Below are positions 4,941 to 42,898 of a DNA stretch of 61,145 nucleotides, piece by piece. The first letter of the stretch is position 1, and every line of letters begins with the position of its first letter. The DNA is taken from positions 1-61,145 of the forward strand of contig WYBJ01000071.1 in the NCBI GenBank assembly GCA_011525945.1, read 5' to 3'. The position numbers and the translations under genes were made by a program. Source of the stretch: Burkholderiaceae bacterium (GTDB taxonomy: Bacteria; Pseudomonadota; Gammaproteobacteria; Burkholderiales; WYBJ01). A model generated the notes under the pieces. The model was not told where the DNA came from, did not search any database, and saw only the letters and a program-made list of their open reading frames with translations.

Positions 4941-6058
4941 GCGAGCGCCTTCTGGTAGATCCGGTAAGTCTTGTAGGGAACCGCGCCGAGCGTTTCGATC
5001 ACGCGCCGCATCGGCCGGTTGTCCTCCAGGATCCAGGAAAGCTCGACTTGCCGCACGCCGCGCGCTCGGGCGCCCGTGCGCAGCCGCTCGATGATGCCGT
5101 ACGCAAGTATGCCGCCGAGCACACCACCCTGGTACTGCGGTCGGATACCCATGAGCGGAACGCGTGCGGAGCGGGTTCCGCGCTTCAAGCGCACGAGCAG
5201 GCGCAACCAATTGAGCGGTAACAGACGGCCGTCGAAGCCGGCGATCGCCTCGTTGAGGTTCGGCAGCAGAATCCCGAATCCCACCGCTTTGCCGTCGATC
5301 TGTGCAATCGCGACACAACTCGGTTGAATCAAGGGCTTCAACGCCTTCGCCATGTGGCGGATCTCAGCCGCGGTGAACGGAATGAAGCCCCAGTTCGCGG
5401 ACCAGGCGGCGTTGAAGATCTCGGTGACGAGGTCGAACTCCTCGATGTAGCGGCGCATGTCGAGGGTGCGTACCGCGATCGCTCCGGGTGCTCGCGTATC
5501 GATGAGCCGGCGCGCGGCCGGCGGCAGATCGCGTTCGAGGTCGTACAGGTAGGCGATCGTGTCCTTCGCCTTGGCGTAGCCGCAAGCTTCCAGGCGCCGC
5601 GCCGCGTACGGCGGATCGTGCGCCATCATCATCATCGGCGGCGTGCCGAAGCCGTCGACGAGCAGGCCGCTTTCCTCGTTGATGGATAGATTGAAAGGGC
5701 CCAGTGCGCGATTTCGTCCGCGCGCAGACAGCCACGCCTCGGCTGCGCCAAACAGTGCCGCGAACGTGTCGGCGTCATCCTCGGCCGCGATCAGCCCGAA
5801 GTGGCCGTCCGCGTCCGGTGCGAGCCGGTCGACCTGGGCGCTAATGCGCCCGACATCCCGGCCTGCGCGTTGCGCCAGGAAGAACTGCGCTTCGGCGTGC
5901 TGAAAGTAGGGGTTGTGCCGCGGCGAGAGCGCCTGACTGCGCTCCAGATGCAGCGGCGTGACAAAGCACCGATCGGCCGCGTACAGTCGCGCGGGCAAAC
6001 GGATGAAGCGATCGAACTGCGAGCGCGTGCGCACCGGGACTACGGTTACGCCGCTCAT
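4937..6058 (-). CDS. GNAT-fold acyltransferase (~373 aa); candidate N-acyltransferase of the lipid island
   Basis: Begins MSGVTVVPVRTRSQFDRFIRLPARLY, with MMMAHDPPYAARRLEACGY and a GNAT-like motif-A region GIRPQYQGGVLGGILAYG. The ATG overlaps the upstream stop (ATGA at 6055-6058). The upstream 194 codons of the track ORF are Arg-rich shadow. Confidence 0.75.
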   Translation of the reverse strand: MSGVTVVPVRTRSQFDRFIRLPARLYAADRCFVTPLHLERSQALSPRHNPYFQHAEAQFFLAQRAGRDVGRISAQVDRLAPDADGHFGLIAAEDDADTFAALFGAAEAWLSARGRNRALGPFNLSINEESGLLVDGFGTPPMMMMAHDPPYAARRLEACGYAKAKDTIAYLYDLERDLPPAARRLIDTRAPGAIAVRTLDMRRYIEEFDLVTEIFNAAWSANWGFIPFTAAEIRHMAKALKPLIQPSCVAIAQIDGKAVGFGILLPNLNEAIAGFDGRLLPLNWLRLLVRLKRGTRSARVPLMGIRPQYQGGVLGGILAYGIIERLRTGARARGVRQVELSWILEDNRPMRRVIETLGAVPYKTYRIYQKALA

Positions 6059-7269
6059 CGGGGCTTGGAGCTCGCCGCGGGTGGGAACAGGAACCCGACC
6101 CAGACGGTTCGCAGCGTATGCCAAGCGAATGTCAGTGCCTGCCAGGCCGTGACCAGGATCAGTCCCGCGTCGCCAGTGCCGAGTGCGAGCGCGATCGCCA
6201 TGATCGTCATGGTGATGTTGCGGCGCGCGATCACGGCGCGTGCCAGCGCGTCGAGGCGCGTGGCCGCATGAAGCGCGGACCCGAGCTTGTATCGGGCGAT
6301 CCCGAGCACCAGTCGGTCGGCGACATAGAACACGATCAGCCATACGGCGGCGAGGTACATCGGATCGGCGAGCGTGCGCGCCCCCAGGCCCCAGGCCCAG
6401 GCGAAATACCAGAACGGCGGGTGCACTTGATCGAGTCCGTGGTCGAGAACGTTGCCGATCTTCGACTCGGTGAGCATCAGGCGCGCCACCTTGCCGTCGA
6501 CGCTGTCGAGCACGCTCATGGCGTAGGCGCACACGAAGCCGGCGAACCAATGTCCACCCGCCCACAGCGGTACGGCTGCGAATGCGAGCACTACCGACAG
6601 CGCCGTCAGCACGTTGGGGTGGACGCCGAGTGCGGTGCACACGCGCACGAGCGGCCAGACCAGCGGCGGATACACCCAGCGTGTCAGCAGGTCGGTCGAG
6701 CCTTTGTAGTTATCCCAGAAGAGCTGGCGCTCGAGCCGCCTGCGTGTGTCGGCATCCTCGACCACGTACTGCCACCAGGGAAGCGTGCGGCGCAGCTTGT
6801 CGATGTAGGCCGGGAAAGCGCGCTCGTCCAAAGGCGCGATCTTGCCGCCGGCGAGCAACGCATCGGCCACCGCGCTCAACGTGGTTGCTTCAGCGGGAAT
6901 GGCGTCGGCGTGCGAGCGATCCAGGCACAGGGCGGCGGCGCGCTGCGCGCCTTCGCCGCGCGCCGCCACACAGGGGCGAGCCGAAGCAAGAAAGCGGATC
7001 AGACGCGGGTCGGTGACGTGCGCGCCATCCACGGCGACGAGCGCTCCGCGAGCGTCGCGTAGTGCGCGCCGCAGCCGTTCGCCCAGCGGCGCCGTGCCGC
7101 AATCGGCACGCGCGCGGGGCCAGGCAGACTGTGCCGCACCGGCGCCGGACAGCATCACCGAATCGCCGGGCGCCAGATGACCGACGCTACGGCGCAGGCG
7201 CTCGAGTGGCGGCACGCCGAAGAGCGCTTGCGCCCGCGGCAGATTGCTTGTTTCGATCCAGAGGTTCAT
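6055..7269 (-). CDS. CDP-alcohol phosphatidyltransferase with ~190-aa N-terminal soluble extension (paralog 1)
   Basis: Exact signature D-G-x2-A-R-x8-G-x3-D-x3-D in DSVDGKVARLMLTESKIGNVLDHGLDQVHP. Multiple TM segments follow. ATGA overlap with the upstream gene at 7266-7269. Confidence 0.88.
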   Translation of the reverse strand: MNLWIETSNLPRAQALFGVPPLERLRRSVGHLAPGDSVMLSGAGAAQSAWPRARADCGTAPLGERLRRALRDARGALVAVDGAHVTDPRLIRFLASARPCVAARGEGAQRAAALCLDRSHADAIPAEATTLSAVADALLAGGKIAPLDERAFPAYIDKLRRTLPWWQYVVEDADTRRRLERQLFWDNYKGSTDLLTRWVYPPLVWPLVRVCTALGVHPNVLTALSVVLAFAAVPLWAGGHWFAGFVCAYAMSVLDSVDGKVARLMLTESKIGNVLDHGLDQVHPPFWYFAWAWGLGARTLADPMYLAAVWLIVFYVADRLVLGIARYKLGSALHAATRLDALARAVIARRNITMTIMAIALALGTGDAGLILVTAWQALTFAWHTLRTVWVGFLFPPAASSKPR

Positions 7270-8333
7270 CGGCGTTCGGCGAAATGAAGCTGCAGCAGTC
7301 CGATCGCGGAGAATAGCAGCGGCGCGGCGAGCGCGGCGACGACCGCGGGTATGCGTCCCGTCGTTCCGAGTGCAGCCATGAAGCCGTCGCACAGCAGGAA
7401 TGCGAGGCCAAGCCCAAGGGCAAGCAGCAGGGCGCCGGCTTCGTTGTTGCGACGCGGCAGCCCGCGCGCCGCCGGCAATGCGAGCAACAGCATGATGAAC
7501 GGCGCAAGCGGCAGCACGAACGAACGCACGAGTGCCGTCTGGTAGTAGCTCAGCGGCTGACTTGCGATGCGCTCGCCTCCGAGCACATCGATCAGCGCCG
7601 CGCTGGAGAGGTTCGGGCGCGCGATGTTGGCGCGGCGAACGTCATCCGGAGTGAGATTGGTCTGCCAGAGCGATATCGGTTCATCGGCACGAGGAACCGT
7701 CGCGCCCGGAACGACCAGTCGCTGGACACCTTCGAGCCGCCAGGCGCCGTGTTGCCATTGCGCGGACCGCGCTGCGATGCGCTCGGTGAGCAGGGTATTG
7801 TCACCGCGGACGTAAATGCGAACGCCGCCGAGGCGTTCGCCGTCGGCGGATGCGGTCAGATAGGATACCGGTCCCGTACTGGTGCGAAGCCAGCTCGGTT
7901 GCGGCGTATCATCGCGCGGCGCCGTGGCGGTCCACCAGGACTGCAACGCGGCTTCGGTATCGGGTACGACGGCTTGCGACAAGGCGATGTGCGTCATCGC
8001 CACGACCAGCGGAACGGGCAGCAGGTAGACGACGATCTGTTTCAGATTGACCCCGGCGGTGCGGATCGCGATCATCTCGTGGTGTCGGGCCAGGTCGTAA
8101 AATGCCCACATCGCACCGAGCAAGGCGGCGAGCGGCAGTGCCACTGTGATCTGGCTTGGCGCGCGCAGCGCGGCGTAGTACGCAAGCCCCTCGATGCCGA
8201 GGCCGCGATCGAGCACATCGGTGGTCATGTCCATCAGCTCGAGCGCTTGCATGAGTGCGATGAAAAAAATCGCAAGCAGCACGGTGTGTACAGCCACGCG
8301 CCGGCGCAGGTAGGCAGCGAGCGCGCCGTTCAT
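7266..8333 (-). CDS. LptG-like permease (YjgP/YjgQ family)
   Basis: Begins MNGALAAYLRRRVAVHTVLLAIFFIALMQALELMD. Organisation is 3 TM segments, a ~130-aa periplasmic domain, then 3 TM segments. It is the second of two tandem YjgP/YjgQ genes. ATGA overlap at 8330-8333. Confidence 0.8.
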   Translation of the reverse strand: MNGALAAYLRRRVAVHTVLLAIFFIALMQALELMDMTTDVLDRGLGIEGLAYYAALRAPSQITVALPLAALLGAMWAFYDLARHHEMIAIRTAGVNLKQIVVYLLPVPLVVAMTHIALSQAVVPDTEAALQSWWTATAPRDDTPQPSWLRTSTGPVSYLTASADGERLGGVRIYVRGDNTLLTERIAARSAQWQHGAWRLEGVQRLVVPGATVPRADEPISLWQTNLTPDDVRRANIARPNLSSAALIDVLGGERIASQPLSYYQTALVRSFVLPLAPFIMLLLALPAARGLPRRNNEAGALLLALGLGLAFLLCDGFMAALGTTGRIPAVVAALAAPLLFSAIGLLQLHFAERR

Positions 8334-9520
8334 CGCCGCCTCCCGCGCGCGAGGCCACGCGCATGCCGCAACGCTTCGCCCAGCCGGCTCTCGGCCCGGG
8401 TGAGCGGATTGTCGCCGGGCCAAGCGAGACTCGCGCGGAACAGCCAAAGGCAAAGCAGCGCGAATGCGACGAGCGGCAGCCACACCGACACTACGGCATC
8501 GGCGCGACCCGATTCAGCCAGGCTTTCGCCAAACTGCAGGCTGTGGTTGAGCACCAGCAAGGCGAGCGCGGTGAATACGGCGCCGGCGGCACGCCGGCCG
8601 CGTTTTGCCGCCATGCCGAGCGGAATGGCGAGCAGCGGCAGCAACGGCAGCACCGCCGAGCGTGCGAGGCGGCCGTGGAATTCACCCGCGAGGCGGGACG
8701 GGGCGATATCGGTTGCACCGCCGTGCATGTCGGCCCAGAGCTCGGGCAGCGTGAGCTCGCGCACCGAACCGCCGCGGGGGCGAAAAGTTGGCGCCTTGGG
8801 ATTGAAGTCCGCGTTGATCACCGCTTTCGTGAAGCGACCGAACCACGCCTTGCCCGGTTCGTACTCGCGCACGAGCAGGCCGTCTTCGAGTTCGAGCAGC
8901 AGGCGTCCGTCATCCGCGGGCACGAGTTCGCCTCGAGGCGCGGTCGTGATTTCCTCGCCGTCGCCCACGCGCCGCTGCACGAACACGCCTTGCAGGTGGC
9001 GCTTGTCGGGCGCGACCGCCTCGGCGTGGAAGACGAAGCCGCGGCCCGCCTTGCCGAAGCGATTCTCTTCCACTCGGGCATCCCAGCGGGCGTTCAGCGC
9101 CGCGTATACCTCGGCGCGGTAGGCGTAGCGGCTGAGCGGCTGCAGATGGCCGAAGAGGTAGAGGCTGAACACGGCGAGCCCGACGGCGAACACGAAGTAC
9201 GGCGCAGCCACACGCACGAGCGAGCGGCCAGAGGCGAGCACGATGTCGAGCTCGCTATCGTCGCTCAATCGAGCGAGTGCGAGGAACATGGCGACCGTGA
9301 AAGCCGCCGGCAGAGCGAGGCCGAGATAGTGCGGCAGCAGGTGCGCCGCCATGCGGAACACCGATGTGACCGGAGCGCCCGTGGCCGCGACCAGATCGAA
9401 CAGCCGCAGCAGGCGCTCGAGCAGTTGCGCAACCAGGATTGCGCCGAGGACGAAGCCGAGCGGGCCCATGAGGGCCCGCAACAGGTAGAAGTCCAGCCGG
9501 TACCCGCCCCTGGGCCGCAA
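8330..9520 (-). CDS. LptF-like permease (YjgP/YjgQ family)
   Basis: Begins RLDFYLLRALMGPLGFVLGAILVAQLLERLLRLFD, with IVLASGRSL. Same 3TM-periplasmic-3TM layout as its neighbour. The track start is a TTG at 9520, and the exact start is uncertain. Confidence 0.8.
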   Translation of the reverse strand: MRPRGGYRLDFYLLRALMGPLGFVLGAILVAQLLERLLRLFDLVAATGAPVTSVFRMAAHLLPHYLGLALPAAFTVAMFLALARLSDDSELDIVLASGRSLVRVAAPYFVFAVGLAVFSLYLFGHLQPLSRYAYRAEVYAALNARWDARVEENRFGKAGRGFVFHAEAVAPDKRHLQGVFVQRRVGDGEEITTAPRGELVPADDGRLLLELEDGLLVREYEPGKAWFGRFTKAVINADFNPKAPTFRPRGGSVRELTLPELWADMHGGATDIAPSRLAGEFHGRLARSAVLPLLPLLAIPLGMAAKRGRRAAGAVFTALALLVLNHSLQFGESLAESGRADAVVSVWLPLVAFALLCLWLFRASLAWPGDNPLTRAESRLGEALRHARGLARGRRR

Positions 9521-9536
9521 CGTGAGATCTCGACGC

Positions 9537-9980
9537 CTACGGGGCGGCTTGGCGCCAGGCCTGGCGCAACTCCCCCACCAGTGCGTCGCTGGCGGCAGCG
9601 TCCGGGACGACAGCAGGTTCCAGCATGGGCGGCCCCGGCCAGCCCGCGTCCGGGTAGTCCGCGCCCATGAAGCTGCGCTTGCCCGAATAACGCGGTATGA
9701 CGTGAAAGTGCACGTCCGGGTCCACCATCATCAGCATGAGGTAATTGATGCGTTCGTAATTCGTATACGCGCGCAGCATGTGCTCCGTCTTGCGCACCAC
9801 CTCGCGCAGTTCGGCAAAAGCTTGCGGGCTCGCATCGGAAAACGCGATCACCGGCTCGCGGCACACCAGCACGAGCGAGCCGAGCGTGGGCTGCCTGGGC
9901 CGCAGCAGCACGCTCCAGCGCTCGGTTTGCGCGATGCGAGTCGAAGGATCGCCGAACTTGATCTCGGTTGCGTTCGCCAT
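9537..9980 (-). CDS. HIT (histidine triad) family protein
   Basis: Begins MANATEIKFGDP. The triad region DVHFHVIPRY has Asp in place of the first His. It is the terminal part of the composite track ORF 9537..11285. Confidence 0.8.
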   Translation of the reverse strand: MANATEIKFGDPSTRIAQTERWSVLLRPRQPTLGSLVLVCREPVIAFSDASPQAFAELREVVRKTEHMLRAYTNYERINYLMLMMVDPDVHFHVIPRYSGKRSFMGADYPDAGWPGPPMLEPAVVPDAAASDALVGELRQAWRQAAP

Positions 9981-9982
9981 GG

Positions 9983-10942
9983 TCAGGCCACCGTTTGTTG
10001 CAGCCGCATCGGGCTCGAGCCGATCTGCTCCGGGGCGGCGTGTGGACGTGTCGTCGGGCGCGGAAGGCAGACTCGATAGCAGCCCGAATCGACGAAGCGC
10101 GCCTCGGCCATCGACCATTGGCGCACGGCGACCTCGACGGCACCCGCAGCCGAGAATCGTAGCCGGTGCCAGCGCGCGGCCTCGTCGCCCGCACTGGCTC
10201 GTGCAGTGGACGACGGCACGCACAGGCACGGAATCATGCCGCGCATCGCCCGCGGGCCCGGCAACGCGTCGAGCCGGGCGGCATGCGCATGGCCGTGCAG
10301 CACGAGCTCGGCGCCGGCGCGCTCGAGCACCGCGCAAAGTGCAGCCCGGTCGGCGAGCGCGCGGCGCCAGCCCACCGCGCCGGCGGCCACGGGGTGATGT
10401 ACGGCTACGATGCGTATGCGGCCGCTGCGCGCTTCGGCGTTGAGCGCGCTCTCCAGATGCGCAAGCTGGTGCGCGCCGATGCGCCCGCGAGCGAGTCCGG
10501 GTGCAGTCGGCCGTGCCGAATTGAGACCGATCAGCGCCAGACCTCCCCGATGATGAACGAAGGGCCAGCGACCGTCTGTGCTGGTCCATGCCGACCAGCG
10601 GCCCAGCCCCTCGGACTCGGCAACCGGAACCAGGGCATCGTGGTTGCCCGGCACGATGCTGATGCGATCGGCGGGTGCGAGCGCTTGCAGCCACGCCGCC
10701 GCACGCGTGAACTCCTCGGGTAGTGCGAAGTTCGTGAGATCGCCCGTGATCACGATATGGTCGAGCGCGGCCGCGCGCAACTCTGCGCTCAGCGCGGCGA
10801 GGATCTCCTCGCTTTGCACGTTGCGCCGGCGCCGCCACGCCCATGCACTCAACTGGCGCTTCGACAGTCGCTGCCGCAACCGCAGCTGCGGCTCGAACGG
10901 CAGGTGCAGGTCGGAGATGTGCGCAAGGGTGAAGGAATTCAT
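9983..10942 (-). CDS. calcineurin-like metallophosphoesterase
   Basis: Begins MNSFTLAHISDLHL (DxH), followed by ITGDLTN (GD), VPGNHD (GNHD), VAVHHP and LHGHAH. This is the first gene of the minus-strand operon that ends at 4155. Confidence 0.85.
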   Translation of the reverse strand: MNSFTLAHISDLHLPFEPQLRLRQRLSKRQLSAWAWRRRRNVQSEEILAALSAELRAAALDHIVITGDLTNFALPEEFTRAAAWLQALAPADRISIVPGNHDALVPVAESEGLGRWSAWTSTDGRWPFVHHRGGLALIGLNSARPTAPGLARGRIGAHQLAHLESALNAEARSGRIRIVAVHHPVAAGAVGWRRALADRAALCAVLERAGAELVLHGHAHAARLDALPGPRAMRGMIPCLCVPSSTARASAGDEAARWHRLRFSAAGAVEVAVRQWSMAEARFVDSGCYRVCLPRPTTRPHAAPEQIGSSPMRLQQTVA

Positions 10943-11013
10943 CGATAATGCTCGCCTTTGCGAAGCAGGACGATTGTGCCATACATTGCGCGCGCGGCGC
11001 GCCGTTGCCAACC

Positions 11014-12108
11014 ATGAGTGAGGTGTCCGGACACATCGTCGGCGAATCAGCGCTGCATATCTGGGGCCTGCCGTCCGCAGCGCGCTTGCGCCGGCAGCTC
11101 GAGCGCGCCGGCGCGCTCGCGGCGCGCGCCGAGCGTGGGGTGTGGCTGCGCGCGGACTGGGTGTACGACCAGCCGATCGTACGCGCGCTCGTCGCGACTC
11201 GCGAGAACTGTGCCCTGGTCGCGGCCGACGGCCGCTGCGTGGCGCTGAGCGTCACGGGCGAGCGGCACGCCGAGGCCGAGCCCACGCTCGCCGCGTACGG
11301 GGTTCCCGGGGGCGTGCGCGCCGTGAGCGTCGCGCAACTCGCCGGCAGCTACGACGACAAGCTGCGCAAGCGCGAGGCGCCTTATCTCATGCCGCTCTCG
11401 CCGCAGACGCTGCCGGCGATCGAACGTCGCATCTTCGGCGCAGCGTACAAGGGCGTGACCGATGCCGTTACGCTCTACCTCTGGCCGGCGCCGGCGCGGG
11501 CGGTGACACGCTTTTGCGCGCAGCACGCGATTACGCCCAACCAGGTGACGTTCGCGAGCCTGCTGCTGGTTTTGGCGGCGATGTGGCTTTTCTGGACCGG
11601 ACATTACGGCCTGGGCCTCGTTTGCGCATGGGTGATGACATTCCTCGACACGGTCGACGGCAAGCTTGCACGCGTCACGCTCACGTTCACCCGCTTCGGT
11701 GACGTGTTCGATCACGGCATCGACCTCATCCATCCGCCTTTCTGGTGGTGGGCGTGGCTCGTGGGGCTGCCGGCGGTGGGCCTGGCGCTCGACCATGCGT
11801 CCGTGGTTCTTGCGGCGATCGTCGCGGGCTACGTGGCACAGCGCCTGGAGGAGGGCGCGTTCATCGCCTGGTTCGGGATGGACATGCATACCTGGCAGCG
11901 CTTCGACAGCCGTTTTCGTCTGATCACCGCCCGGCGCAATCCCAACCTGCTGATCCTGACGTGCTCGGCGGCCGCGGGCAGACCGGATGTCGGTATCGTA
12001 GCGGTTGCGCTCTGGACCGTGTTTTCGCTCGGTGTGCACAGCGTGCGTCTGGCACAGGCGGGGCTGGTGCGCCGTCGGGGGCCGCTGCGCTCGTGGCTCG
12101 CGTCCTGA
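11014..12108 (+). CDS. CDP-alcohol phosphatidyltransferase with N-terminal extension (paralog 2)
   Basis: Signature in DTVDGKLARVTLTFTRFGDVFDHGIDLIHPPFWWW. The N-terminal domain is alignable by eye with paralog 1 (…KLRKREAPYL…AAYKGVTDAVTLYLWP versus …KLRRTLPWWQ…DNYKGSTDLLTRWVYP). The ATG at 11014 was chosen over the track start at 10948. Confidence 0.88.
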   Translation: MSEVSGHIVGESALHIWGLPSAARLRRQLERAGALAARAERGVWLRADWVYDQPIVRALVATRENCALVAADGRCVALSVTGERHAEAEPTLAAYGVPGGVRAVSVAQLAGSYDDKLRKREAPYLMPLSPQTLPAIERRIFGAAYKGVTDAVTLYLWPAPARAVTRFCAQHAITPNQVTFASLLLVLAAMWLFWTGHYGLGLVCAWVMTFLDTVDGKLARVTLTFTRFGDVFDHGIDLIHPPFWWWAWLVGLPAVGLALDHASVVLAAIVAGYVAQRLEEGAFIAWFGMDMHTWQRFDSRFRLITARRNPNLLILTCSAAAGRPDVGIVAVALWTVFSLGVHSVRLAQAGLVRRRGPLRSWLAS

Positions 12109-13055
12109 AATCCGGCACACACCCGCATGCGGCGCTCGCTGCGCTGATCGAACCGGAGCTCGATCGCGTCCTGCCGCGCGAAGTCGCCGCGTTCGCCGAG
12201 CGACTCGCGGCGCGCGCCGGCGCCAAGACCGCGGCAGTGCTCTTCTATGGCTCGGCGTTGCGCGACCAGGCGCTCGATGGCTTGCTCGATTTCTATCTGC
12301 TGGTCGATCGAGCGCGTGCGTGGCCCGGTTCGTGGCTCGCCGCGGCGGCCATGCGCGTATTGCCGCCCAATGTCGGCTACGCGGAAGAGGAATTCGGCGG
12401 GCGAATGCTGCGCGCCAAGTACGCCGTCATGACTTTGGCGCAGTTTCGCCGTGCGATGGCAGCGCGCTCGCTCGACACGACGCTCTGGACGCGCTTCTCG
12501 CAGCCGTGCGCCTGCGCCTATGCACGCAGCGACGACGATCGCGATGCGGTGCTCGATGCCGCGTGCGCGGCCACGCTGGCGGCGGCGTACTGGGCGGCCG
12601 TGGTCGGACCCGATCGCGGCGAGCCCTCGGCGTACTGGAACGCGCTCTACGCCCGCACCTACGAGCTCGAGCTCAGGGTGGAGTCGGCGCGGCGCAGCGA
12701 CTCCGTGCTCGCCGGGGCGAGCGAGCGCTATGCGCGCCTGCTGCCCGTGGCGTGGCACGCTGCTGGCGTCGCATTCGAGACGCACCGCGATGAATTGCGC
12801 CGGCTGCTCGCGCCAAGCGATCGTGCCGCTGCCCTGCGACGATGGGCACTGCGACGCCGGCTCGGGCGGGCGCTCAATTTGCTGCGGCTCATGAAAGCGG
12901 CGCTCACGTTCGAGCGTCCGCTCGATTACGTCGCATGGAAAGTCGAACGCCATTCGGGCGTACGGCTCGACTTCGCGCCATGGCAACGGCGCTTTCCTCT
13001 GCTCGCCGCACCCGGGCTTTACTGCCGTTTGCGCCGCCGCGGCCTGCTCCGTTAG
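12093..13055 (+). CDS. Tam41/Mmp37-like nucleotidyltransferase-fold protein (putative lipid-phosphate cytidylyltransferase)
   Basis: 3-prime part of track ORF 11745..13055. Contains VLFYGSALRDQALDGLLDFYLLVD (NTase G-S…D motif), LRAKYAVMTLAQF…LWTRFSQP and a C-terminal LRLMKAALTFERPLDYVAWKVER. These resemble Tam41 as I remember it. The start is provisional: GTG 12093, overlapping the upstream gene by 16 nt. Confidence 0.6.
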   Translation: MARVLKSGTHPHAALAALIEPELDRVLPREVAAFAERLAARAGAKTAAVLFYGSALRDQALDGLLDFYLLVDRARAWPGSWLAAAAMRVLPPNVGYAEEEFGGRMLRAKYAVMTLAQFRRAMAARSLDTTLWTRFSQPCACAYARSDDDRDAVLDAACAATLAAAYWAAVVGPDRGEPSAYWNALYARTYELELRVESARRSDSVLAGASERYARLLPVAWHAAGVAFETHRDELRRLLAPSDRAAALRRWALRRRLGRALNLLRLMKAALTFERPLDYVAWKVERHSGVRLDFAPWQRRFPLLAAPGLYCRLRRRGLLR

Positions 13056-13112: not shown

Positions 13113-14102
13113 TCATCGCATCGTCGGGCGCTCGGCGAGCCAGCCGGCGGCCCGGTACCAGGCCACCGCATCCGCAAACCCGGATTCGAGCTCGAACCGA
13201 GGACTCCAGCCCCTGGGCCTGGCCTGCTCGTTGACAGACACCGACCAGTCGAGATGGGAGATTTCACGCAGCTTGTGCGAATTGAGCATCGTCGGCGTGC
13301 CCAGCAAACGCCCCAGATCTCCCGCCCACGCGGCCGTACGCAGCAACGCCCGCGGCATCCGCACGAGCCGTGCATGCGGATTGCCGACGGCACGCGCGCC
13401 CGCGCCCAGAATCTCGCGCCAGTCGTAGCCTTGCGCTCTCGCGTCGGTTGCCGCCAGCACCTCGCCCTCGGGCTTGGCTGTCGCCAGCGCGACGATGAGG
13501 GCGGCGAGATCGCGCACGTGAATGAGCGCCACGCGTGCCTGCGCCGAGGCGGGTAGCGCGACGATGCGATGACGCGCCAGGCGAAACAAGCGCAGCGTCT
13601 CCGGATCGGCAGGACCGTACACCGCGGCGGGACGCAGCACCGTCGCCTGCGCCCCGAGTATTTCGCGCACCGCGTCCTCGCCCGCGCGCTTGCTCGCGGC
13701 GTAGTCGGACAGACACGGTTCGCGTGCGGCGAGCGTGGAAACGTGGACGAAATGCGCCCGGGGCGCAAGTCGCCGTGCGCTGCCGGCAAGCGCTGCGCTC
13801 GCCGCGGCGTTGACCTGGAAGAAATCCCGCCGGCGCGCCGCCTTGATGAGCCCGGCGACATGGATCACCGCGTCTGCGCCGTCGACCAGACGCTCGAGCG
13901 CGGACGCATCGGCCAGCGCGCCGGCCACGACTTCGGGACAAATCCCGTGCCAGTCCGCGTCGTGCGGTTCGCGCCGCACGAGCATGCGCAGCCGCCACCC
14001 GGCGTGCGCGAGCGCGGGCACGAGATGGCGGCCGATGAAGCCAGTTGCGCCGGTCAGCGCCGCAAGCGGCGCGCCGGAGTCGGCCGGTTCTGTCGCGATC
14101 AT
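13113..14102 (-). CDS. NAD(P)-dependent epimerase/dehydratase-fold (extended SDR) reductase
   Basis: Rossmann loop LTGATGFIGRHLV and a YxxxK motif in DYAASKRAGE. Confidence 0.85.
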   Translation of the reverse strand: MIATEPADSGAPLAALTGATGFIGRHLVPALAHAGWRLRMLVRREPHDADWHGICPEVVAGALADASALERLVDGADAVIHVAGLIKAARRRDFFQVNAAASAALAGSARRLAPRAHFVHVSTLAAREPCLSDYAASKRAGEDAVREILGAQATVLRPAAVYGPADPETLRLFRLARHRIVALPASAQARVALIHVRDLAALIVALATAKPEGEVLAATDARAQGYDWREILGAGARAVGNPHARLVRMPRALLRTAAWAGDLGRLLGTPTMLNSHKLREISHLDWSVSVNEQARPRGWSPRFELESGFADAVAWYRAAGWLAERPTMR

Positions 14103-14236
14103 GTCGTCACGAGGCGGGCGGCGAATGCCGGTGGCTTGATGATGCGGCGCATATTACTATCGACGCGCTGGAACCGTATTCCCGCGCCACCGCTCGCCGC
14201 GCGGGCGTGCCTTTGCCATCATCTGACGCGCCGACC

Positions 14237-16453
14237 ATGTCCTCTCCTCTGCGAAATCAAGATGCGCTCCCGCTACTGCAAACGGCCGAAGCGCTTGGCG
14301 TCGAGTGCCTGACGTTCGGTGTTGCGCCCGGTGTCGCGCCGAACGGCAAGCCGCCGGTGCGCATTTTCCTCGGCACCGAGGAGGCGCAGGGCCGTGCCGA
14401 GCGCGTGTTTCTTTACACCGTACACAAGCATCGCGATGCCGCGCGCGTCTACCAGGTCTACCTCATGAAGGAGCTGCCGGGGTTCGATCGGCGCACCTGG
14501 CGCACCGGTTTCACGCAATACCGCTTCGCGATCCCGGAACTCGCAGGCGGGCACGGCCGGGCGATCTACAACGATGTCGATCAGATCTACCTCGCCGATC
14601 CGGCGGCGCTGTTCGATCTCGACCTGAAAAGCTGCGGTTACCGCGCAGTCGCCGCCAACGACACCTCGGTGATGGTGATGGACTGCGCGCGCATGCTGCC
14701 GTGGTGGAACGTCGGCGCTGCGCGGGCAAGCGGCAAGCGCGAGCTGGTGGATGCGCCCGCTGCCGAGCCCGGGCTTTGGGGCGTGCTCGATGGCGATTGG
14801 AATGCGCGCGATTTCGAGTATCGCCGCGGCGCATCGAAGCTCCTGCACTACACGACGCTGCACCTGCAACCTTGGCGACCGACGCCCGGGCAATATTCCT
14901 ACCACCCGCACCCGCTCGCTTCGCTGTGGCAGCACCTCGAGCGCGAAGCCGATGCGATGCACTACCAGCCGTTCACGCAGGCGCATCCGAGCGCGGCGTA
15001 TCGCCGCTTGCTTTCGGCAGGACAGGCGCCGCTGCTGCCTGCAGCGGGTGAGACGGTGAGCGTTGGCGAGAACCTCGAACGCTTGCCGGCGCAGGATCGC
15101 GCATGGTTTCTGGATGCCGTGTTCGCTCGGGCGCAAGCCGCGGTGCAACTGCGGGTGGACGTTCGCGCGGCGATTACGCCGGCGGACCGCGCGCCGGTGC
15201 TGCGAATCACGGCGCCGGCGCAGTGGTGGCGCGAAGGTCTCGCGCAGGCCGCGGAGCACCGCCCCGAGGTCGCGTGGACGCTCGATCTCATCGAGCGCGA
15301 CGGCACGCGCAGCTTCCACTACCAGCCGCCACGGGGTGCGCCGCGCGTCTGGGTTCTGCTGGGCCGTCACGAGGGTGACAATCGCCAGTTGCTCGCGCTC
15401 GCCGAAGCGCTCGGCTGGCCCTTCGAGACGCGCAGACTCGACTTCAAGCGCCACCGCATCCTGCCCAACTGGCTGCAAGGCGGCTCGCTCGCGCAACTCG
15501 ATCGTATCCGCTCCGAGTCACTGGGTCCGCCTTGGCCCGACCTCGTCCTCGCCTGCGGCCGGCGCAGCGCACCGGTCGCGCGCTGGATCGGCCGCCGCTC
15601 CGCGGGTACGGCGCGTCTGGTGCACCTCGGGCGCCCGCAAGCGCCGCTGGCGGCATTCGACCTCGTCGTCACCACGCCGCAGTACCGCCTGCCCGGGCGC
15701 GACAACGTGGTGTACAACGTGCTCCCGCTCAACCGCACGATGCCGGGAGCGAGTGCGCGTGCCGCGGCGTCATGGGCGCCGCGGCTCGAACACCTGCCGC
15801 GGCCGTGGATCGCACTGCTCGTCGGCGGCAACAGCTCTTCAAGCGAGCTGAGCACGGCCGTCGCGAGTCGACTGCGCGATCAAGCGGAAGCGCTCGCGCG
15901 CGAACGCGGCGGCTCGCTTCTCATCGCCACCAGCCCGCGCACGCCGCCGCCGGCAGCGGACATCGTGCTCGCGGATTCTGCCGTGCCTGGCGTGCGCTAC
16001 CGTTGGCGCGCGCGCGATCCCGACAATCCCTACGCGCTGTTTCTCGATCGGGCCGACGAGCTGATCGTCACCGGCGACAGCGCCTCGATGCTCGCCGAGG
16101 CATGCGCGTCGGGCCGCCCGGTGCATTACGTCGCTCTGCCCTGGCCGGCAAGACGCAGGCGTCTTGCCCTGGCTGCGCTGCGGTTGCTAGCGGGTCGGCA
16201 AGACCGGCTCGGCGAGCGTGGTACGCCCAAGCAGCAGGGCCGCATCGGCCGCTGGCGTGACCGGCTCCTTGCTGCTGGAGTGCTGCGGCCCCCGCGCGAT
16301 CTCAGCGCCCTGCACGAGGCATTGCGCTGGAGCGGGCTCGCGCAGCCGCTCGGAGAACCGGGTTCGCCGCTGCCCGGGGCTTGCGACGATCTCGAGCGCA
16401 CCGTGGCCGCGGTGCGTCGGCTGCTCCTGAGTGGCCGCGCCGCGCGATCATGA
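14237..16453 (+). CDS. fusion protein: GT8-like glycosyltransferase domain + ELM1 (DUF1022)-like domain
   Basis: N-terminal half: YRFAIPELAGGHGRAIYNDVDQIYLADPAALFDLDL (DxD) and LLHYTTLHLQPW. C-terminal half: VWVLLGRHEGDNRQLLALAEALGWPF…DLVLACGRRS…LVGGNSSS…LIVTGDSASMLAEACASGRPV. Start is the ATG at 14237 inside track ORF 14045..16453. Confidence 0.75.
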   Translation: MSSPLRNQDALPLLQTAEALGVECLTFGVAPGVAPNGKPPVRIFLGTEEAQGRAERVFLYTVHKHRDAARVYQVYLMKELPGFDRRTWRTGFTQYRFAIPELAGGHGRAIYNDVDQIYLADPAALFDLDLKSCGYRAVAANDTSVMVMDCARMLPWWNVGAARASGKRELVDAPAAEPGLWGVLDGDWNARDFEYRRGASKLLHYTTLHLQPWRPTPGQYSYHPHPLASLWQHLEREADAMHYQPFTQAHPSAAYRRLLSAGQAPLLPAAGETVSVGENLERLPAQDRAWFLDAVFARAQAAVQLRVDVRAAITPADRAPVLRITAPAQWWREGLAQAAEHRPEVAWTLDLIERDGTRSFHYQPPRGAPRVWVLLGRHEGDNRQLLALAEALGWPFETRRLDFKRHRILPNWLQGGSLAQLDRIRSESLGPPWPDLVLACGRRSAPVARWIGRRSAGTARLVHLGRPQAPLAAFDLVVTTPQYRLPGRDNVVYNVLPLNRTMPGASARAAASWAPRLEHLPRPWIALLVGGNSSSSELSTAVASRLRDQAEALARERGGSLLIATSPRTPPPAADIVLADSAVPGVRYRWRARDPDNPYALFLDRADELIVTGDSASMLAEACASGRPVHYVALPWPARRRRLALAALRLLAGRQDRLGERGTPKQQGRIGRWRDRLLAAGVLRPPRDLSALHEALRWSGLAQPLGEPGSPLPGACDDLERTVAAVRRLLLSGRAARS

Positions 16454-17724
16454 CGCGGCTTGCATCGGTTCGCACGCTCGCCGCGCAGGCGAGGCGGATC
16501 ACTTTGCTGCTGCCATCGCTGGCGGCCGGCGGTGTGGCCCGCTCGGTGCTGCATCTTGCCGGTGCGTTCGACGATGCCGGCCGGTCGGTCGATCTCGTGC
16601 TGTGCAAGGCCGAGGGCCCCAATCTCTCGAGCGTGCCCGCCGGTGTCAACGTCGTGACGTTGCGGCGCGAGAGTCCGATCGCCGCTCGCGCGCGGCTGCT
16701 ACGGCTCGATCCGCGCGGCGCGGCGGCGATGGCGCGCCCTGCCTTGTTTGCCTGGCGTCCGGCTCCGGTCCAGCCCTATCTCGCCGACCTGGCGCGCTAT
16801 CTAGATCGGGTACGACCCGACGTGCTGCTGTCGGCAAAGACACCGACAAATCTGCTCGCGCTCTGGGCGCAGCGCGCGAGCGGGGGCGCTACGCGCGTGG
16901 TGGTTGCCGAGCACACGCAGTTGTCGCAATCGATCGCGCGCGAGCGCAAGTGGCGCTGGCGTTACATCGCGCCGTTGGTGGCGCGCGCGTATGCCGGCGC
17001 GGACGCGATCGTGTGCGTGTCGGACGGCGTCGCCGACGATCTCGCCTGTACCGCGCGATTGCAGCGCTCGCGTCTGAGCACGATCTACAACCCGGTCGTG
17101 ACGCCGGAGCTTGCGCTGCGCGCTGCCGAAGCCCCGCCGCATGCCTGGCTCGATGCGAGCGCCGATGCGGGCGTGCGTCGAACCGCGCATCCGCCGGTCC
17201 TCGTCGCCGCGGGTCGGCTGGTCGCGCAGAAGAACTTCGCGCTGCTGCTGCATGCGTTCGCGCGGCTACGCTCGCAGCGCCCGGCGCGTTTGTTGATCCT
17301 GGGCGAGGGGCGCGAGCGGCCGAAGCTGGAGGCGCTCGCTCGCGAGCTCGGCATTGCCGCCGATGTCGCCCTGCCGGGCCATGTGGCCAATCCGTATGCG
17401 GCTTTCGCGCGCGCCAGCACGTTCGTGCTCTCGTCGGATTGGGAAGGATTGCCGACGGTGCTGATCGAGGCGCTCGCCTGCGGTTGTCCCGTCGTGAGCA
17501 CCGATTGCCCGAGCGGCCCGGCCGAGATTCTGCAACACGGGCACTACGGTGCGCTCGTGCCGATGGGAGACGCCACCGCGCTCGCGCAAGCGATGGCGGC
17601 CACGCTCGAGCGACCTCCGGCAGTCGAGCTGCTGCGTGGCCGCGCGCAAGCATTCACGCTGCAACGGAGCGCCCAGCGCTACCTCGAGCTGCTCGATGGA
17701 CTCTTTTTGCGTGCGCCCGCGTAA
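16450..17724 (+). CDS. GT4-family (GT-B) glycosyltransferase
   Basis: E-x7-E motif in SDWEGLPTVLIEALACGCPVVSTD, plus LVAAGRLVAQKNF. ATGA overlap with the upstream stop at 16450-16453. Confidence 0.85.
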   Translation: MTRLASVRTLAAQARRITLLLPSLAAGGVARSVLHLAGAFDDAGRSVDLVLCKAEGPNLSSVPAGVNVVTLRRESPIAARARLLRLDPRGAAAMARPALFAWRPAPVQPYLADLARYLDRVRPDVLLSAKTPTNLLALWAQRASGGATRVVVAEHTQLSQSIARERKWRWRYIAPLVARAYAGADAIVCVSDGVADDLACTARLQRSRLSTIYNPVVTPELALRAAEAPPHAWLDASADAGVRRTAHPPVLVAAGRLVAQKNFALLLHAFARLRSQRPARLLILGEGRERPKLEALARELGIAADVALPGHVANPYAAFARASTFVLSSDWEGLPTVLIEALACGCPVVSTDCPSGPAEILQHGHYGALVPMGDATALAQAMAATLERPPAVELLRGRAQAFTLQRSAQRYLELLDGLFLRAPA

Positions 17725-17744
17725 CGCGTGCGTTTGCTGCTACG

Positions 17745-18821
17745 ATGCCGCGAAAGAGAAGGGCCTTCACCGTGCAGCTGCCCGCCGGGCGCTTCGCAAA
17801 TCTCATCGTCGCTTCGACCTTCTACCACGTCATACTCGCTTGCCTGATCGCGCGCGATGTGCGCTTCGCAGGCGCGAGCGCGCTGGTTCTACACATGGGC
17901 CGCGAGCAGATGGCGGCGTTGTACGAGTCGCTGGCGCGATCGACGGACAGCCCGTTTGCAGCGACGGTCGCGATGCATCCGGGCGAGGGCGGCAAGGCAG
18001 CGCGCGAGCGTGCCCAGGGCCGCTGGCTCGCACGGCTCGATCGAATCGTGCAGAGCGAGCGCGTCATCGTCTTCAACGACCTGACGCCCGACCTGCAGCT
18101 TCTGTGCCGGCGCGCAGAGCAGCGCGGCGCGCGTACGTTCTGTGGCGAGGATGGCGGCGCGGCGTATTCGTCCCGCAGCGCCGCCTCTGCGCGGCGGCGG
18201 CATCTGCAGCGGATGCTGCGTTTCGGCCCCTGGATCGAGAACGTGGTTGCGTCCGGCGCCAGCCGTCATATCCAGACCTATCTCGCGCTCAATGCCGAGC
18301 TGCTGCGCCCCGAGCTCCAGCACAAGCCCGTCTGGGCGTTGCAGGCTCGGGCCATGCCGGAGCTGATCGCGTCGAGCTGGATCGGCGAGTTTCTGGCGCG
18401 CTTCGGGGTTGCGCCGAGCGCGCTCGCGTGCGACGAGCTGTACGTTCCGGCGAGAAATCGGCCGTCCGCGGCACGCGAGCGGGCGTGCTCGGCGCTGTCG
18501 CGGGAGCTGCACGCGGCTAGACAGGCCGGTCTGGATTGCCTGGTGAAGTATCATCCGCGCGACCCGCAGGACCGCCTCGGCGCGCAAGCGCTCGGCGTGC
18601 GCGTGTTGCCGGCGGCGATCCCCGCGGAACTGATCTATCTCGCCAGCGGCGAAAGGCTTCGCCGTGTTCTCGGCGACACGGGCACGACGCTCATGAGCGC
18701 GCGCTGGCTTGCACCGCAGGCGCAGGCGATCTCGGCGCTGGAGCTGTCGGCCATGGATGATCCGTGGTACGCGCGCACGCTCGAGCGGCTCGGGGTGCAG
18801 AGCCTGCATATCCAGGCGTGA
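17745..18821 (+). CDS. hypothetical protein carrying the two short bacterial-sialyltransferase signature motifs (D/E-D/E-G and H-P)
   Basis: 3-prime part of track ORF 16431..18821, starting at ATG 17745. Contains FCGEDGGAAY (residues ~135-137) and LVKYHPRDP (residues ~270-271). No other recognisable domain. Confidence 0.6.
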   Translation: MPRKRRAFTVQLPAGRFANLIVASTFYHVILACLIARDVRFAGASALVLHMGREQMAALYESLARSTDSPFAATVAMHPGEGGKAARERAQGRWLARLDRIVQSERVIVFNDLTPDLQLLCRRAEQRGARTFCGEDGGAAYSSRSAASARRRHLQRMLRFGPWIENVVASGASRHIQTYLALNAELLRPELQHKPVWALQARAMPELIASSWIGEFLARFGVAPSALACDELYVPARNRPSAARERACSALSRELHAARQAGLDCLVKYHPRDPQDRLGAQALGVRVLPAAIPAELIYLASGERLRRVLGDTGTTLMSARWLAPQAQAISALELSAMDDPWYARTLERLGVQSLHIQA

Positions 18822-18860
18822 CCCCCCGTAGCCCGATTCCGACCGGAGTACGACGTCAAG

Positions 18861-19793: not shown

Positions 19794-19799
19794 CAGCCG

Positions 19800-41883: not shown

Positions 41884-41896
41884 CGCGCTACCCCGT

Positions 41897-42894
<998 letters not shown>

Positions 42895-42898
<4 letters not shown>

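Follow-up and report, generated by a model that had tools for sequence, protein, structure and literature searches.

A divergent Tam41 homologue of the CpgC family in a Burkholderiales sphingolipid island, and a possible CDP-ceramide route to anionic sphingolipids

The open reading frame (ORF) at 12093 to 13055 on the forward strand of the window, the 61,145-nucleotide stretch of a Burkholderiaceae contig (WYBJ01000071.1) analysed here, is a cpgC-like gene that encodes a 320-aa Tam41-fold nucleotidyltransferase, in which an NTase domain is joined by a winged-helix-type domain and by basic helices at the C-terminus. Caulobacter CpgC is of the same gene family, and the position of its gene is the one that the ORF takes in a Burkholderiales sphingolipid island (4155 to 29382 of the window). 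The ORF is an additional member of a known family that has already been linked to anionic sphingolipids. The best explanation, to which we assign a probability of roughly 0.55, is that the protein is a CpgC-family Tam41 homologue that makes CDP-ceramide from ceramide-1-phosphate, and that this product is then used by an enzyme of the CDP-alcohol phosphotransferase type. Anionic sphingolipids (ceramide phosphoglycerate and diphosphoglycerate) support the survival of Caulobacter without lipid A, and are determinants of its polymyxin sensitivity and, in an insect model, of virulence. How ceramide-1-phosphate becomes ceramide phosphoglycerate is the step of this pathway still to be solved, and across three phyla the family responsible for it combines a Tam41 fold and two Tam41 CTP-binding residues with a gene position nearly always directly after a ceramide kinase. 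The CDP-ceramide reading predicts that CTP and ceramide-1-phosphate are converted into CDP-ceramide. If true, this would be the first nucleotide-activated ceramide and would connect a family of bacterial sphingolipid enzymes with mitochondrial Tam41; sphingolipid head groups would then be made in these bacteria much as glycerophospholipids are made through CDP-diacylglycerol. With the window, the range of the sphingolipid cluster grows by an uncultured Burkholderiales lineage, in which the gene set is rearranged and larger.

The ORF is a genuine, widely conserved gene. The first-pass annotation had proposed a GTG start at 12093, which would lie inside the end of the preceding CDP-alcohol transferase gene (stop at 12108), and had raised the question whether the real start could be found. 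The overlap was borne out, with the TGA of the transferase gene at 12106-12108 and 16 nt shared by the two genes. The wording 'fused in operon' thus holds for overlapping genes, but the products are two polypeptides and not one. The start itself is backed by codon-position GC and by the common start 'M/V-A-R-x-L' of the nearest homologues: from 12093 on, the GC contents at codon positions 1, 2 and 3 are 0.75/0.55/0.79, resembling the adjacent genes, whereas the same-frame stretch 11745-12092 shows 0.84/0.72/0.52, indicating that it is noncoding in that frame. An identical protein on record in NCBI (MAG Burkholderiales bacterium, IT530_15220) has the same length, 320 aa. A word-indexed search found 825 matches to the family at E<=1e-3, and an exhaustive search found 1399 clusters at 50% identity, 457 of them at E<=1e-30. 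Given its coding-like codon-position GC and its conservation in so many clusters, we rejected the idea that GC-rich sequence had produced a spurious ORF.

To place the gene in its genomic context, we listed 80 of 588 relatives, using as a query a 37-sequence subset, sharing WKIERHSG, of an alignment of 127 diverse family members, and counted neighbours within 10 kb. The hosts were alpha- and gammaproteobacteria and Myxococcota. Near the homologues in these listed loci we found a serine palmitoyltransferase gene (spt; 62/80), a fatty acyl-AMP ligase (64/80), LptF2/G2 (53-56/80), a MobA-like NTase (55/80), a phosphoesterase (44/80) and a CDP-alcohol transferase (43/80). The gene order is that of Caulobacter CC_1152-CC_1165, and also of Swit_3900-3908 listed in PMC11324152, with the ORF homologues at the CC_1161 (CpgC) position. 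A DAGK-type lipid kinase gene lies directly upstream of the ORF homologue in 72 of 75 loci, and a direct junction of transferase and ORF, as in the window, is a minority arrangement (3/75); the gene order of the window is common to loci L001, L003 and L005. The family is tied genomically to serine palmitoyltransferase, and most of all to the DAGK-type lipid kinase. There were no Caulobacterales among the 80 of 588 relatives listed, and the 10 clusters closest to Sphingomonadales sequences contained Rhodothalassium, Geminicoccaceae and MAGs instead of Caulobacter CpgC; the match to CpgC (CC_1161/CCNA_01219) was made by cluster position and family membership.

[quoted passage not shown] Olea-Ozuna et al. 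reported in 2024 that CC_1161 homologues carry the Tam41 InterPro domain IPR015222, and proposed that an NDP-activated ceramide is formed from ceramide-1-phosphate (PMC11324152). In May 2026, the Caulobacter group still termed the mechanism of CpgC unidentified (PMC13228409). CDP-ceramide as a term was absent from the literature searched, in which no detection of a nucleotide-activated ceramide was reported for any organism. The earlier statement that CDP-ceramide is undescribed is thus correct insofar as none has been demonstrated in that literature, but it overlooks the 2024 proposal; the CDP-ceramide idea is reasonable, not new.

The ORF protein is homologous to the CDP-diacylglycerol synthase Tam41/Mmp37, though divergent from it, and we are highly confident in describing it as a Tam41-homologous protein of the CpgC family. 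When an AlphaFold2 model (pLDDT 89, pTM 0.88) was compared with the PDB using Foldseek, the best four matches were all Tam41 (6ig2, 6ig4), with E values of 1.6e-8 to 1.2e-7 and a probability of 1.0; the superposition gave TM-scores of just 0.50-0.58 over ~280 columns. Structure prediction and superposition thus agree with the Tam41/Mmp37-like cytidylyltransferase fold proposed in the first-pass annotation. The next PDB matches were aminoglycoside nucleotidyltransferases (E 5e-4, TM ~0.3), and an identity as an aminoglycoside- or MNT-type nucleotidyltransferase was rejected, since these structures score four orders of magnitude below Tam41. The suggested search with the Mmp37/Tam41 HMM had a divided outcome. 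The ORF protein itself (12093-13052) had no match in Pfam and NCBIfam even at E<=10, and did not reach the gathering score of PF09139 (Tam41_Mmp37), whereas 11 of the 127 diverse family representatives matched PF09139 at E<=0.01, and no other family was matched by more than one of them. Member P0264 scored 34.3 bits against PF09139 (cut-off 24), and matched Schizosaccharomyces pombe Tam41 (SpTam41, 6ig2_A) with an E value of 3.7e-6 and Firmicutes Tam41 (7ecd_A) with 0.015; the link to Tam41 in the PDB sequence searches came via this one divergent member. Profile searches of PDB sequences retrieved no Tam41, giving only noise with a narrow alignment (A1) and a weak generic NTase match (9xbd, E 0.015) with a broad alignment (A2). 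Aligned with hhalign to an SpTam41 fragment, the A2 family profile gave an E value of 1.1e-4 in the same register, with a probability of only 57%.

With Tam41 as the closest solved structure, the protein might be an ordinary Tam41-type CDP-diacylglycerol synthase that serves glycerophospholipid synthesis, the more so as Firmicutes Tam41 makes CDP-diacylglycerol, going by the passage of PMC11646218 that cites Kimura 2022. We consider this very improbable: the family is too divergent from Tam41, with most members below the Pfam threshold, it occurs consistently near spt and a lipid kinase gene within sphingolipid clusters, and in Caulobacter the effect of the mutation is confined to ceramide-1-phosphate and CPG.

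The NTase G-S…D motif noticed in the first-pass annotation is present as Y52-G53-S54 and D66, which vary little or not at all among the 127 diverse members; the position of D72 holds an acidic residue (D or E) in 104 of them. The Tam41 motifs 'KYGV', 'GRFQKP' and 'LSY.GD.R' align with K109, R134/Q137/P138 and Y190/E193/R195 of the ORF protein, respectively; K109, R134, Q137 and R195 are invariant in the 127 members, and P138, Y190 and E193 are conserved in >90%. Lys109 and Arg133 of human TAMM41, which bind CTP (PMC8935507), correspond to K109 and R134. From the complete human CTP-binding set (K109, R133, K136, T199 and N208) three residues could be mapped, of which K109 and R133 are kept and K136 is replaced by the invariant Gln137. 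Since the second CTP-binding lysine of Tam41 is a glutamine in this family, the nucleotide pocket differs. The family also has an invariant C-terminal motif, W-K283-x-E-R286-H287-x-G, with no demonstrated counterpart in Tam41. There is no transmembrane segment in the ORF protein, and its C-terminal helices carry net charges of +8 (residues 241-272) and +5 (296-315). Tam41 was solved without its last 74 residues (PMC7018664), the part with which these helices would be compared.

Invariant residues without a demonstrated Tam41 counterpart, Q137 and the C-terminal motif, would also fit a Tam41 fold that carries out a different reaction, in which a single active site attaches the head group (glycerate or other) to ceramide-1-phosphate by way of an enzyme-bound nucleotidylated intermediate or another activated donor, and no free CDP-ceramide is formed. 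Such a mechanism is in line with the proposal of Zik et al. that CpgC adds glycerate to ceramide phosphate (PMC9393093), and with the fact that no separate transferase is known for the CPG step in Caulobacter (PMC11324152). Moreover, a MobA-like NTP transferase is naturally fused to a CpgC-like domain in P0248 and is encoded next to it in loci L059, L060 and L072, which hints at coupled nucleotide chemistry. However, direct esterification is energetically unfavourable according to Olea-Ozuna et al. (PMC11324152), and the G-S…D motif together with the CTP-binding Lys and Arg of Tam41 suggests ordinary NMP transfer, so that we regard single-site attachment as unlikely.

The ORF had been placed in a sphingolipid island adjoining a CDP-alcohol transferase gene, and this was confirmed by the presence of spt, acpR, an acyl-AMP ligase, a lipid kinase and LptF/G. 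On the forward strand, the island encodes a fatty acyl-AMP ligase (26086-27957; PRK09192, 766 bits versus 600), a small acyl carrier protein, AcpR (27954-28181; ACP matches and an LGLDS motif), and serine palmitoyltransferase (28186-29382; NCBIfam equivalog NF047599, 562 bits versus a cut-off of 500). The remaining genes listed here lie on the reverse strand, except the transferase gene discussed below. The DAGK-type lipid kinase at 23772-24809 (PF00781, 27.7 bits versus a cut-off of 23.6) is a cpgB-like ceramide kinase candidate that is displaced from its usual place upstream of cpgC. It is flanked by a fatty-acid desaturase/hydroxylase family protein (24773-25951; PF00487) and, at 21045-23958, by an LpxL-like acyltransferase (21045-22010) and an MsbA-like ABC exporter (22003-23958), with matches to PF03279, PF00005 and PF00664; the exporter is found in 28/80 listed loci. 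Directly downstream of the ORF is a cerR-like NAD-dependent epimerase/SDR gene (13113-14102; PF01370), whose product is 42-62% identical to the SDR located between spt and the acyl-AMP ligase elsewhere. Upstream are a metallophosphoesterase (9983-10942; PF00149, 52 bits) and a HIT-family protein (9537-9977; PF01230, E 2.8e-5; same position in 34/80 listed loci), which are by gene position the counterparts of CC_1158 and CC_1157. A pair of LptF/LptG-family permeases follows at 7266-8483 and 8330-9520 (7266-9520 in all, starts uncertain; PF03739, E 1e-57 and 1e-60), counterparts of the sphingolipid-specific LptF2/LptG2, whose role in Caulobacter is described in a bioRxiv preprint (10.64898/2026.04.12.717747). 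A second CDP-alcohol phosphotransferase paralogue (6055-7392, start uncertain, probably near 7260; PF01066) has the full catalytic motif and is 34% identical to the 11014-12108 product; such a separate copy occurs in only 5/80 listed loci. The conserved gene at 4937-6049, which had no family match in Pfam and NCBIfam, is by gene position a candidate counterpart of CC_1154 (bCerS); 31/80 listed loci have a homologue there. The MobA-like NTP transferase at 4155-4922 (PF12804; CC_1153/CC_1152 type) shares 42% identity with the N-terminal domain of P0248, and its best solved relative is TTHA0179 (2dpw). When a counterpart of CpgD (CTP:phosphoglycerate cytidylyltransferase) was sought in the window, this MobA-like NTase of the CC_1152 or CC_1153 type was the only one found. 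The region from 30 to 61 kb was rejected as part of the system, given its content (a MoxR/BatA/VWA operon and genes for a peptide ABC transporter, a GMC oxidoreductase and a hydantoinase).

The adjacent gene at 11014-12108 (forward strand, alternative start ATG 10948) encodes a cpgA-like CDP-alcohol phosphotransferase (PF01066, 44 bits versus a cut-off of 22) with an N-terminal cytosolic NTase-like domain, and lies at the CC_1159 (cpgA) position. Its catalytic signature D-x2-D-G-x2-A-R-x8-G-x3-D-x3-D is complete (DTVDGKLARVTLTFTRFGDVFDHGID at residue 212), and its homologues are mostly 364-375 aa long with full-length coverage. The best Foldseek match of its model (pLDDT only 76) was AF2299 (4o6m, E 1.2e-9, TM 0.58-0.63), followed by PIPS (5d92, TM 0.61-0.65) and IPCT-DIPPS (4mnd), and the N-terminal domain weakly resembles IPCT (2xme). 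CpgA, AF2299, IPCT-DIPPS and PIP synthase have in common with it the PF01066 domain and the eight-residue signature, and AF2299 and IPCT-DIPPS also the N-terminal NTase-like domain. The best NCBIfam matches were PIP synthase and archaetidylinositol-phosphate synthase, and its scores for the PIP/DIPP synthase equivalogs are far under the cut-offs.

The first-pass annotation had assembled the neighbouring genes into a linear route from kinase to cytidylyltransferase, adjacent CDP-alcohol transferase and phosphatase. In full, the ORF would make CDP-ceramide, the translationally coupled transferase would consume it with a phosphorylated acceptor, as PgsA or PIP synthase do, and the metallophosphoesterase would remove the terminal phosphate. 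The 16-nt overlap and the complete catalytic motif are consistent with this, as are the sub-cut-off NCBIfam matches, to enzymes that take a CDP-lipid as donor, act on a phosphorylated acceptor and are followed by a phosphatase, and the phosphoesterase gene adjoins the transferase gene in 44 of the 80 listed loci. However, deletion of cpgA, the Caulobacter counterpart by gene position, leaves CPG intact and abolishes only CPG2 (PMC9393093), the substrate proposed for CpgA is CDP-glycerate supplied by CpgD (PMC12275187), and deletion of CC_1158 has only a mild effect, shifting the CPG/CPG2 ratio slightly (PMC11324152). Furthermore, the conserved pair is kinase and ORF, not transferase and ORF, and the transferase model is closest to AF2299 and IPCT-DIPPS, users of soluble CDP-alcohol donors. 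We therefore give the four-step scheme a low probability. What stands of the original logic is the DAGK-type kinase as conserved partner, with ceramide-1-phosphate as the expected substrate of the ORF protein; the linear scheme conflicts with Caulobacter genetics.

With a DAGK-type lipid kinase as conserved partner, ceramide-1-phosphate is the obvious substrate of the ORF protein. In the CDP-ceramide reading, the enzyme would act on the cytoplasmic face of the inner membrane, taking the ceramide-1-phosphate produced by the lipid kinase, transferring CMP from CTP onto its phosphate and releasing pyrophosphate. The product would be CDP-ceramide, the sphingolipid counterpart of CDP-diacylglycerol, and an enzyme of the CDP-alcohol phosphotransferase type would then exchange CMP for glycerate or a phosphoglycerate. 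Candidates for the latter enzyme in the window are the two paralogues, 6055-7392 and 11014-12108; for the latter paralogue, the cpgA-like neighbour of the ORF, a role in adding the second phosphoglycerate from CDP-glycerate is more probable, in keeping with the Caulobacter proposal. Counting against CDP-ceramide, no cluster-encoded transferase is known to consume it in Caulobacter, because the cpgA deletion mutant still makes CPG. On balance, we see about an even chance that the ORF protein forms CDP-ceramide. The odds are similarly balanced for the wider proposal that CpgC-family enzymes are CTP:ceramide-1-phosphate cytidylyltransferases, with CDP-ceramide a real metabolite consumed by a CDP-alcohol phosphotransferase, which could here be the 6055-7392 paralogue.

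Compared with known systems, the ORF protein has in common with Tam41 (SpTam41 6ig2/6ig4; Firmicutes 7ecd) the NTase plus winged-helix fold, the K-Y, R-F-x-x-P and Y-x-x-[DE]-x-R motifs that include two CTP-binding residues, and a soluble character; its basic C-terminal region is a putative counterpart of the Tam41 part that would attach peripherally to the membrane. The expected chemistry is also the same, transfer of CMP from CTP onto a lipid phosphomonoester, but the lipid would be ceramide-1-phosphate instead of phosphatidate. The two differ in sequence (only 13-15% identity, the Pfam model not being reached), in the 'GRFQKP' lysine that is an invariant glutamine in the ORF family, and in the additional W-K-x-E-R-H-x-G motif of the latter. 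CdsA, an integral membrane CDP-diacylglycerol synthase of unrelated fold, catalyses the analogous activation step (lipid phosphate and CTP to CDP-lipid), and the likeness is one of function only. Published CpgC homologues carry the Tam41/Mmp37 InterPro domain and come from alpha-, beta-, gamma- and deltaproteobacteria; Caulobacter CpgC is ~294 aa long, compared to 320 aa for the ORF protein. The Caulobacter cluster and the window island both contain the kinase, CDP-alcohol transferase, phosphoesterase, HIT protein, LptF2/G2, MobA-like NTase, spt, acpR, cerR and acyl-AMP ligase. In the window, which comes from a Burkholderiales MAG, the kinase gene lies ~11 kb away, so that the ORF abuts the cpgA-like transferase gene. 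The island also has genes beyond the Caulobacter set, for a second CDP-alcohol transferase, an ELM1-domain protein, a 796-aa protein of no assigned role, a methyltransferase and the LpxL-like acyltransferase, and the final lipid may therefore differ from that of Caulobacter.

The reading frame that closes at 13055 is open from 11745, and its upstream part overlaps the CDP-alcohol transferase gene (11014-12108, +). Before 12093, the GC contents at codon positions 1, 2 and 3 are 0.84, 0.72 and 0.52, and this stretch has no coding signature in the frame of the ORF. From 12093 onward the values are 0.75, 0.55 and 0.79, as in the neighbouring genes. The ORF (12093-13055, +) starts with a GTG located 16 nt ahead of the end of the upstream TGA (12106-12108). 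The closest homologues share this start ('M/V-A-R-x-L'), and an identical 320-aa protein is recorded for a Burkholderiales MAG (IT530_15220). A word-indexed search with the ORF product gave 825 matches, and in an exhaustive search 1399 clusters (50% identity) were found, of which 457 reached E ≤ 1e-30. The named family members are all annotated as 'hypothetical protein', without a precomputed Pfam domain. The frame, the coding GC, the overlap and the conserved family confirm the gene reported in the first-pass annotation. The nucleotidyltransferase (NTase) motif noticed at that time was also borne out: across 127 diverse members, Y52, G53 and D66 never vary, S54 is kept in 117, and 104 have Asp or Glu at the position of D72.

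The likeness to Tam41, also claimed at that stage, was supported by the fold and, through relatives, by sequence, but not by HMM searches with the ORF product itself, which matched none of the Pfam and NCBIfam models even at E ≤ 10. Measured by the HMM check that the first-pass annotation had set, the ORF product on its own thus fails. Searching PDB sequences with ORF-family profiles did not retrieve Tam41 either. An AlphaFold2 model built from 34 sequences (pLDDT 89, pTM 0.88) comprises an NTase domain of the alpha/beta type, a helical domain that carries a beta-hairpin, and helices at the C-terminus. When this model was compared with the PDB using Foldseek, the top four matches were S. pombe Tam41 structures (6ig2 and 6ig4), all with probability 1.0, E-values of 1.6e-8 to 1.2e-7, and TM-scores of 0.50-0.58 over about 280 columns. 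The next family, the ANT(4') aminoglycoside nucleotidyltransferases, followed at E 5e-4 with a TM-score of about 0.3. At the sequence level, 11 of the 127 family representatives reached PF09139 at E ≤ 0.01, and any other family was matched by one representative at most. The representative P0264 scored 34.3 bits against PF09139 (gathering score 24), and aligned directly with SpTam41 (E 3.7e-6) and with the Firmicutes Tam41 7ecd (E 0.015). Alignment of the family profile to an SpTam41 fragment with hhalign gave the same register (E 1.1e-4), with a probability of only 57% for this single-sequence target.

The alignments place the Tam41 motif KYGV at K109-Y110 of the ORF product, GRFQKP at R134-F-S-Q137-P138, and LSY.GD.R at T189-Y190-..-E193-L-R195. 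In human TAMM41, CTP is bound by Lys109, Arg133 and Lys136, and Tyr110 and Pro137 lie next to these residues (PMC8935507). Because the motif alignments equate Lys109 and Arg133 with K109 and R134, two of the three CTP-binding residues are invariant among the 127 members, and the third, Lys136, corresponds to an invariant glutamine. Of the three acidic residues of classical NTases, Tam41 retains only one (PMC11646218), with which the lone invariant Asp66 of the ORF family is compatible.

The ORF lies within a sphingolipid island at about 4155-29382. On the plus strand, this island contains the adjacent CDP-alcohol transferase, a fatty acyl-AMP ligase (26086-27957), a small acyl carrier protein (27954-28181) and serine palmitoyltransferase (28186-29382), the latter matching the curated beta-proteobacterial equivalog with 562 bits against a cut-off of 500. 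The minus strand encodes a MobA-like NTP transferase (4155-4922), a second CDP-alcohol transferase (6055-7392), an LptF/LptG pair (7266-9520), a HIT protein (9537-9977), a metallophosphoesterase (9983-10942), an SDR/epimerase (13113-14102), an LpxL-like acyltransferase (21045-22010), an MsbA-like exporter (22003-23958), a DAGK-type kinase (23772-24809) and a fatty-acid desaturase/hydroxylase (24773-25951). Scanning one genome per species yielded 588 ORF relatives, and 80 loci were retained from Gammaproteobacteria (Nevskia, Solimonas, Steroidobacteraceae), Myxococcota and Alphaproteobacteria (Acetobacter, Asaia, Methylopila, Hansschlegelia, Novosphingobium, Sphingobium, Erythrobacter). Within 10 kb of the ORF homologues we found acyl-AMP ligase in 64 of the 80 loci, spt in 62, LptF2 in 56, the MobA-like NTase in 55, LptG2 in 53, the phosphoesterase in 44, CDP-alcohol transferase in 43, HIT in 34 and SDR in 31. 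The canonical order is NTase(-), unknown(-), LptG2(-), LptF2(-), HIT(-), phosphoesterase(-), transferase(+), kinase(+), ORF(+), followed by spt(-), an optional acp, SDR(-) and ligase(-). The gene directly upstream of the ORF homologue was a DAGK-type kinase in 72/75 loci (64 detected by BLAST and 8 more by the GGDG motif), and a CDP-alcohol transferase in only 3/75. The arrangement in the window, with the kinase moved beside the ABC exporter, is common to the related loci L001, L003 and L005.

A lineage-specific insert (14045-20671) separates the cerR-like SDR from the LpxL-like gene. It encodes a protein of 802 aa whose C-terminal domain is ELM1 (PF06258, E 2e-59), a protein of 796 aa that matched neither Pfam nor NCBIfam and has a counterpart at none of the 80 loci, a SAM methyltransferase, and a protein of 293 aa with no given family. 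Given this insert, the end lipid of the island may carry decorations absent from what is known of Caulobacter. The LpxL-like and MsbA-like pair (21045-23958, -), whose exporter occurs in 28 of the 80 loci, may provide a dedicated flippase and acylation step. Unrelated to the sphingolipid genes is a Bat/aerotolerance-like operon (36367-42898, -) encoding a MoxR AAA ATPase, DUF58, BatA and a large VWA-domain protein. A 238-aa protein with ankyrin repeats, which free-living bacteria seldom have, is encoded at 2264-2980 (-), beside a proline racemase family gene (747-1970).

Nucleotide-transfer chemistry with the kinase product as substrate is suggested by the near-obligate pairing of kinase and ORF and the Tam41 fold with its conserved CTP-binding Lys and Arg, as found here, and by the published deletion of Caulobacter crescentus cpgC, which keeps ceramide-1-phosphate and lacks both ceramide phosphoglycerate (CPG) and its diphosphoglycerate form, CPG2 (PMC9393093). 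The ORF product would thus convert ceramide-1-phosphate and CTP into CDP-ceramide and PPi at the cytoplasmic face of the membrane. The C-terminal helices are basic (net +8 and +5) and a transmembrane segment is absent, features that would fit peripheral membrane binding. As to the adjacent transferase, its catalytic signature is complete, and the best matches of its model, including the N-terminal cytosolic NTase-like domain, were AF2299, IPCT-DIPPS and AF2299-PIP synthase chimeras. Some members of this family use soluble CDP-alcohol donors (DIPPS) and others CDP-lipid donors (PIP synthase), therefore the structure leaves the donor type undecided. The first-pass annotation had proposed a chain of kinase, cytidylyltransferase, this transferase and the phosphatase acting on ceramide-1-phosphate. 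The ceramide-1-phosphate logic stands, but the four-enzyme chain is at odds with the Caulobacter mutants, since CPG is retained and CPG2 is lost when cpgA is deleted (PMC9393093). CDP-glycerate is made by CpgD and is the proposed donor for CpgA (PMC12275187). The Caulobacter genetics favours CDP-glycerate and CPG as substrates of the adjacent transferase. The second transferase (34% identical to the first, with an intact motif and a long N-terminal domain) is a candidate for the CDP-ceramide-consuming step in the window lineage; a separate second copy occurs in only 5 of the 80 loci (L035, L062, L064, L073, L080).

The metagenomic family representative P0248 (594 aa) is a natural fusion of a MobA-like NTP transferase, 42% identical to the 4155-4922 product, with a CpgC-like domain, and in the sphingomonad loci L059, L060 and L072 (about 10001-11620) the corresponding two genes are immediate neighbours with the same orientation. 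The fusion and the adjacency tie both nucleotidyltransferases to one pathway. Besides the 4155-4922 product, whose best solved relative is the uncharacterised TTHA0179 (2dpw, E 2e-16), the window encodes no further MobA-like NTP transferase. It also yielded no clear equivalent of CpgD, the CDP-glycerate synthase. The HIT-family gene lies between LptF2 and the phosphoesterase, a position kept in 34 of the 80 loci. Its counterpart in Caulobacter is CC_1157, which published work regards as probably unrelated. HIT enzymes act on nucleotide-linked phosphates, and this gene could be relevant to a pathway with CDP-activated intermediates.

The canonical order corresponds to that of Caulobacter CC_1152-CC_1165 (Olea-Ozuna et al. 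2024, PMC11324152). That cluster encodes CpgD (CC_1152), a MobA/CofC-like NTase (CC_1153), bCerS (CC_1154), LptG2 and LptF2 (CC_1155 and CC_1156), CC_1157, labelled 'probably unrelated', a phosphoesterase (CC_1158), CpgA with a CDP-alcohol transferase domain (CC_1159), the ceramide kinase CpgB (CC_1160), CpgC (CC_1161), Spt (CC_1162), AcpR (CC_1163), CerR (CC_1164) and an acyl-ACP synthetase (CC_1165) (PMC11324152). In the related loci, the CC_1161 slot is filled by the ORF family. The Sphingomonadales locus L076 (cerS, LptG2, LptF2, kinase, ORF, spt) corresponds to Swit_3908 to Swit_3900, in which Swit_3902 is listed as the CC_1161 orthologue, and the InterPro domain IPR015222 (Tam41/Mmp37) is stated to be present in the CC_1161 homologues of alpha-, beta-, gamma- and deltaproteobacteria (PMC11324152). 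By cluster position, the ORF is a member of the already described CpgC family with a rearranged locus. The first-pass annotation considered a CDP-ceramide intermediate undescribed; the term 'CDP-ceramide' and its variants were indeed absent from the literature searched, but the idea of an activated ceramide was in print by 2024, as a proposed NDP-activated ceramide (PMC11324152). In May 2026 the CpgC mechanism was still termed unidentified (PMC13228409). The ORF extends a known system by one new member with a rearranged locus. To this system we add support at fold and motif level for the relationship of the CpgC family to Tam41, and the finding that a lipid kinase precedes the ORF homologue in 72/75 loci across three phyla.
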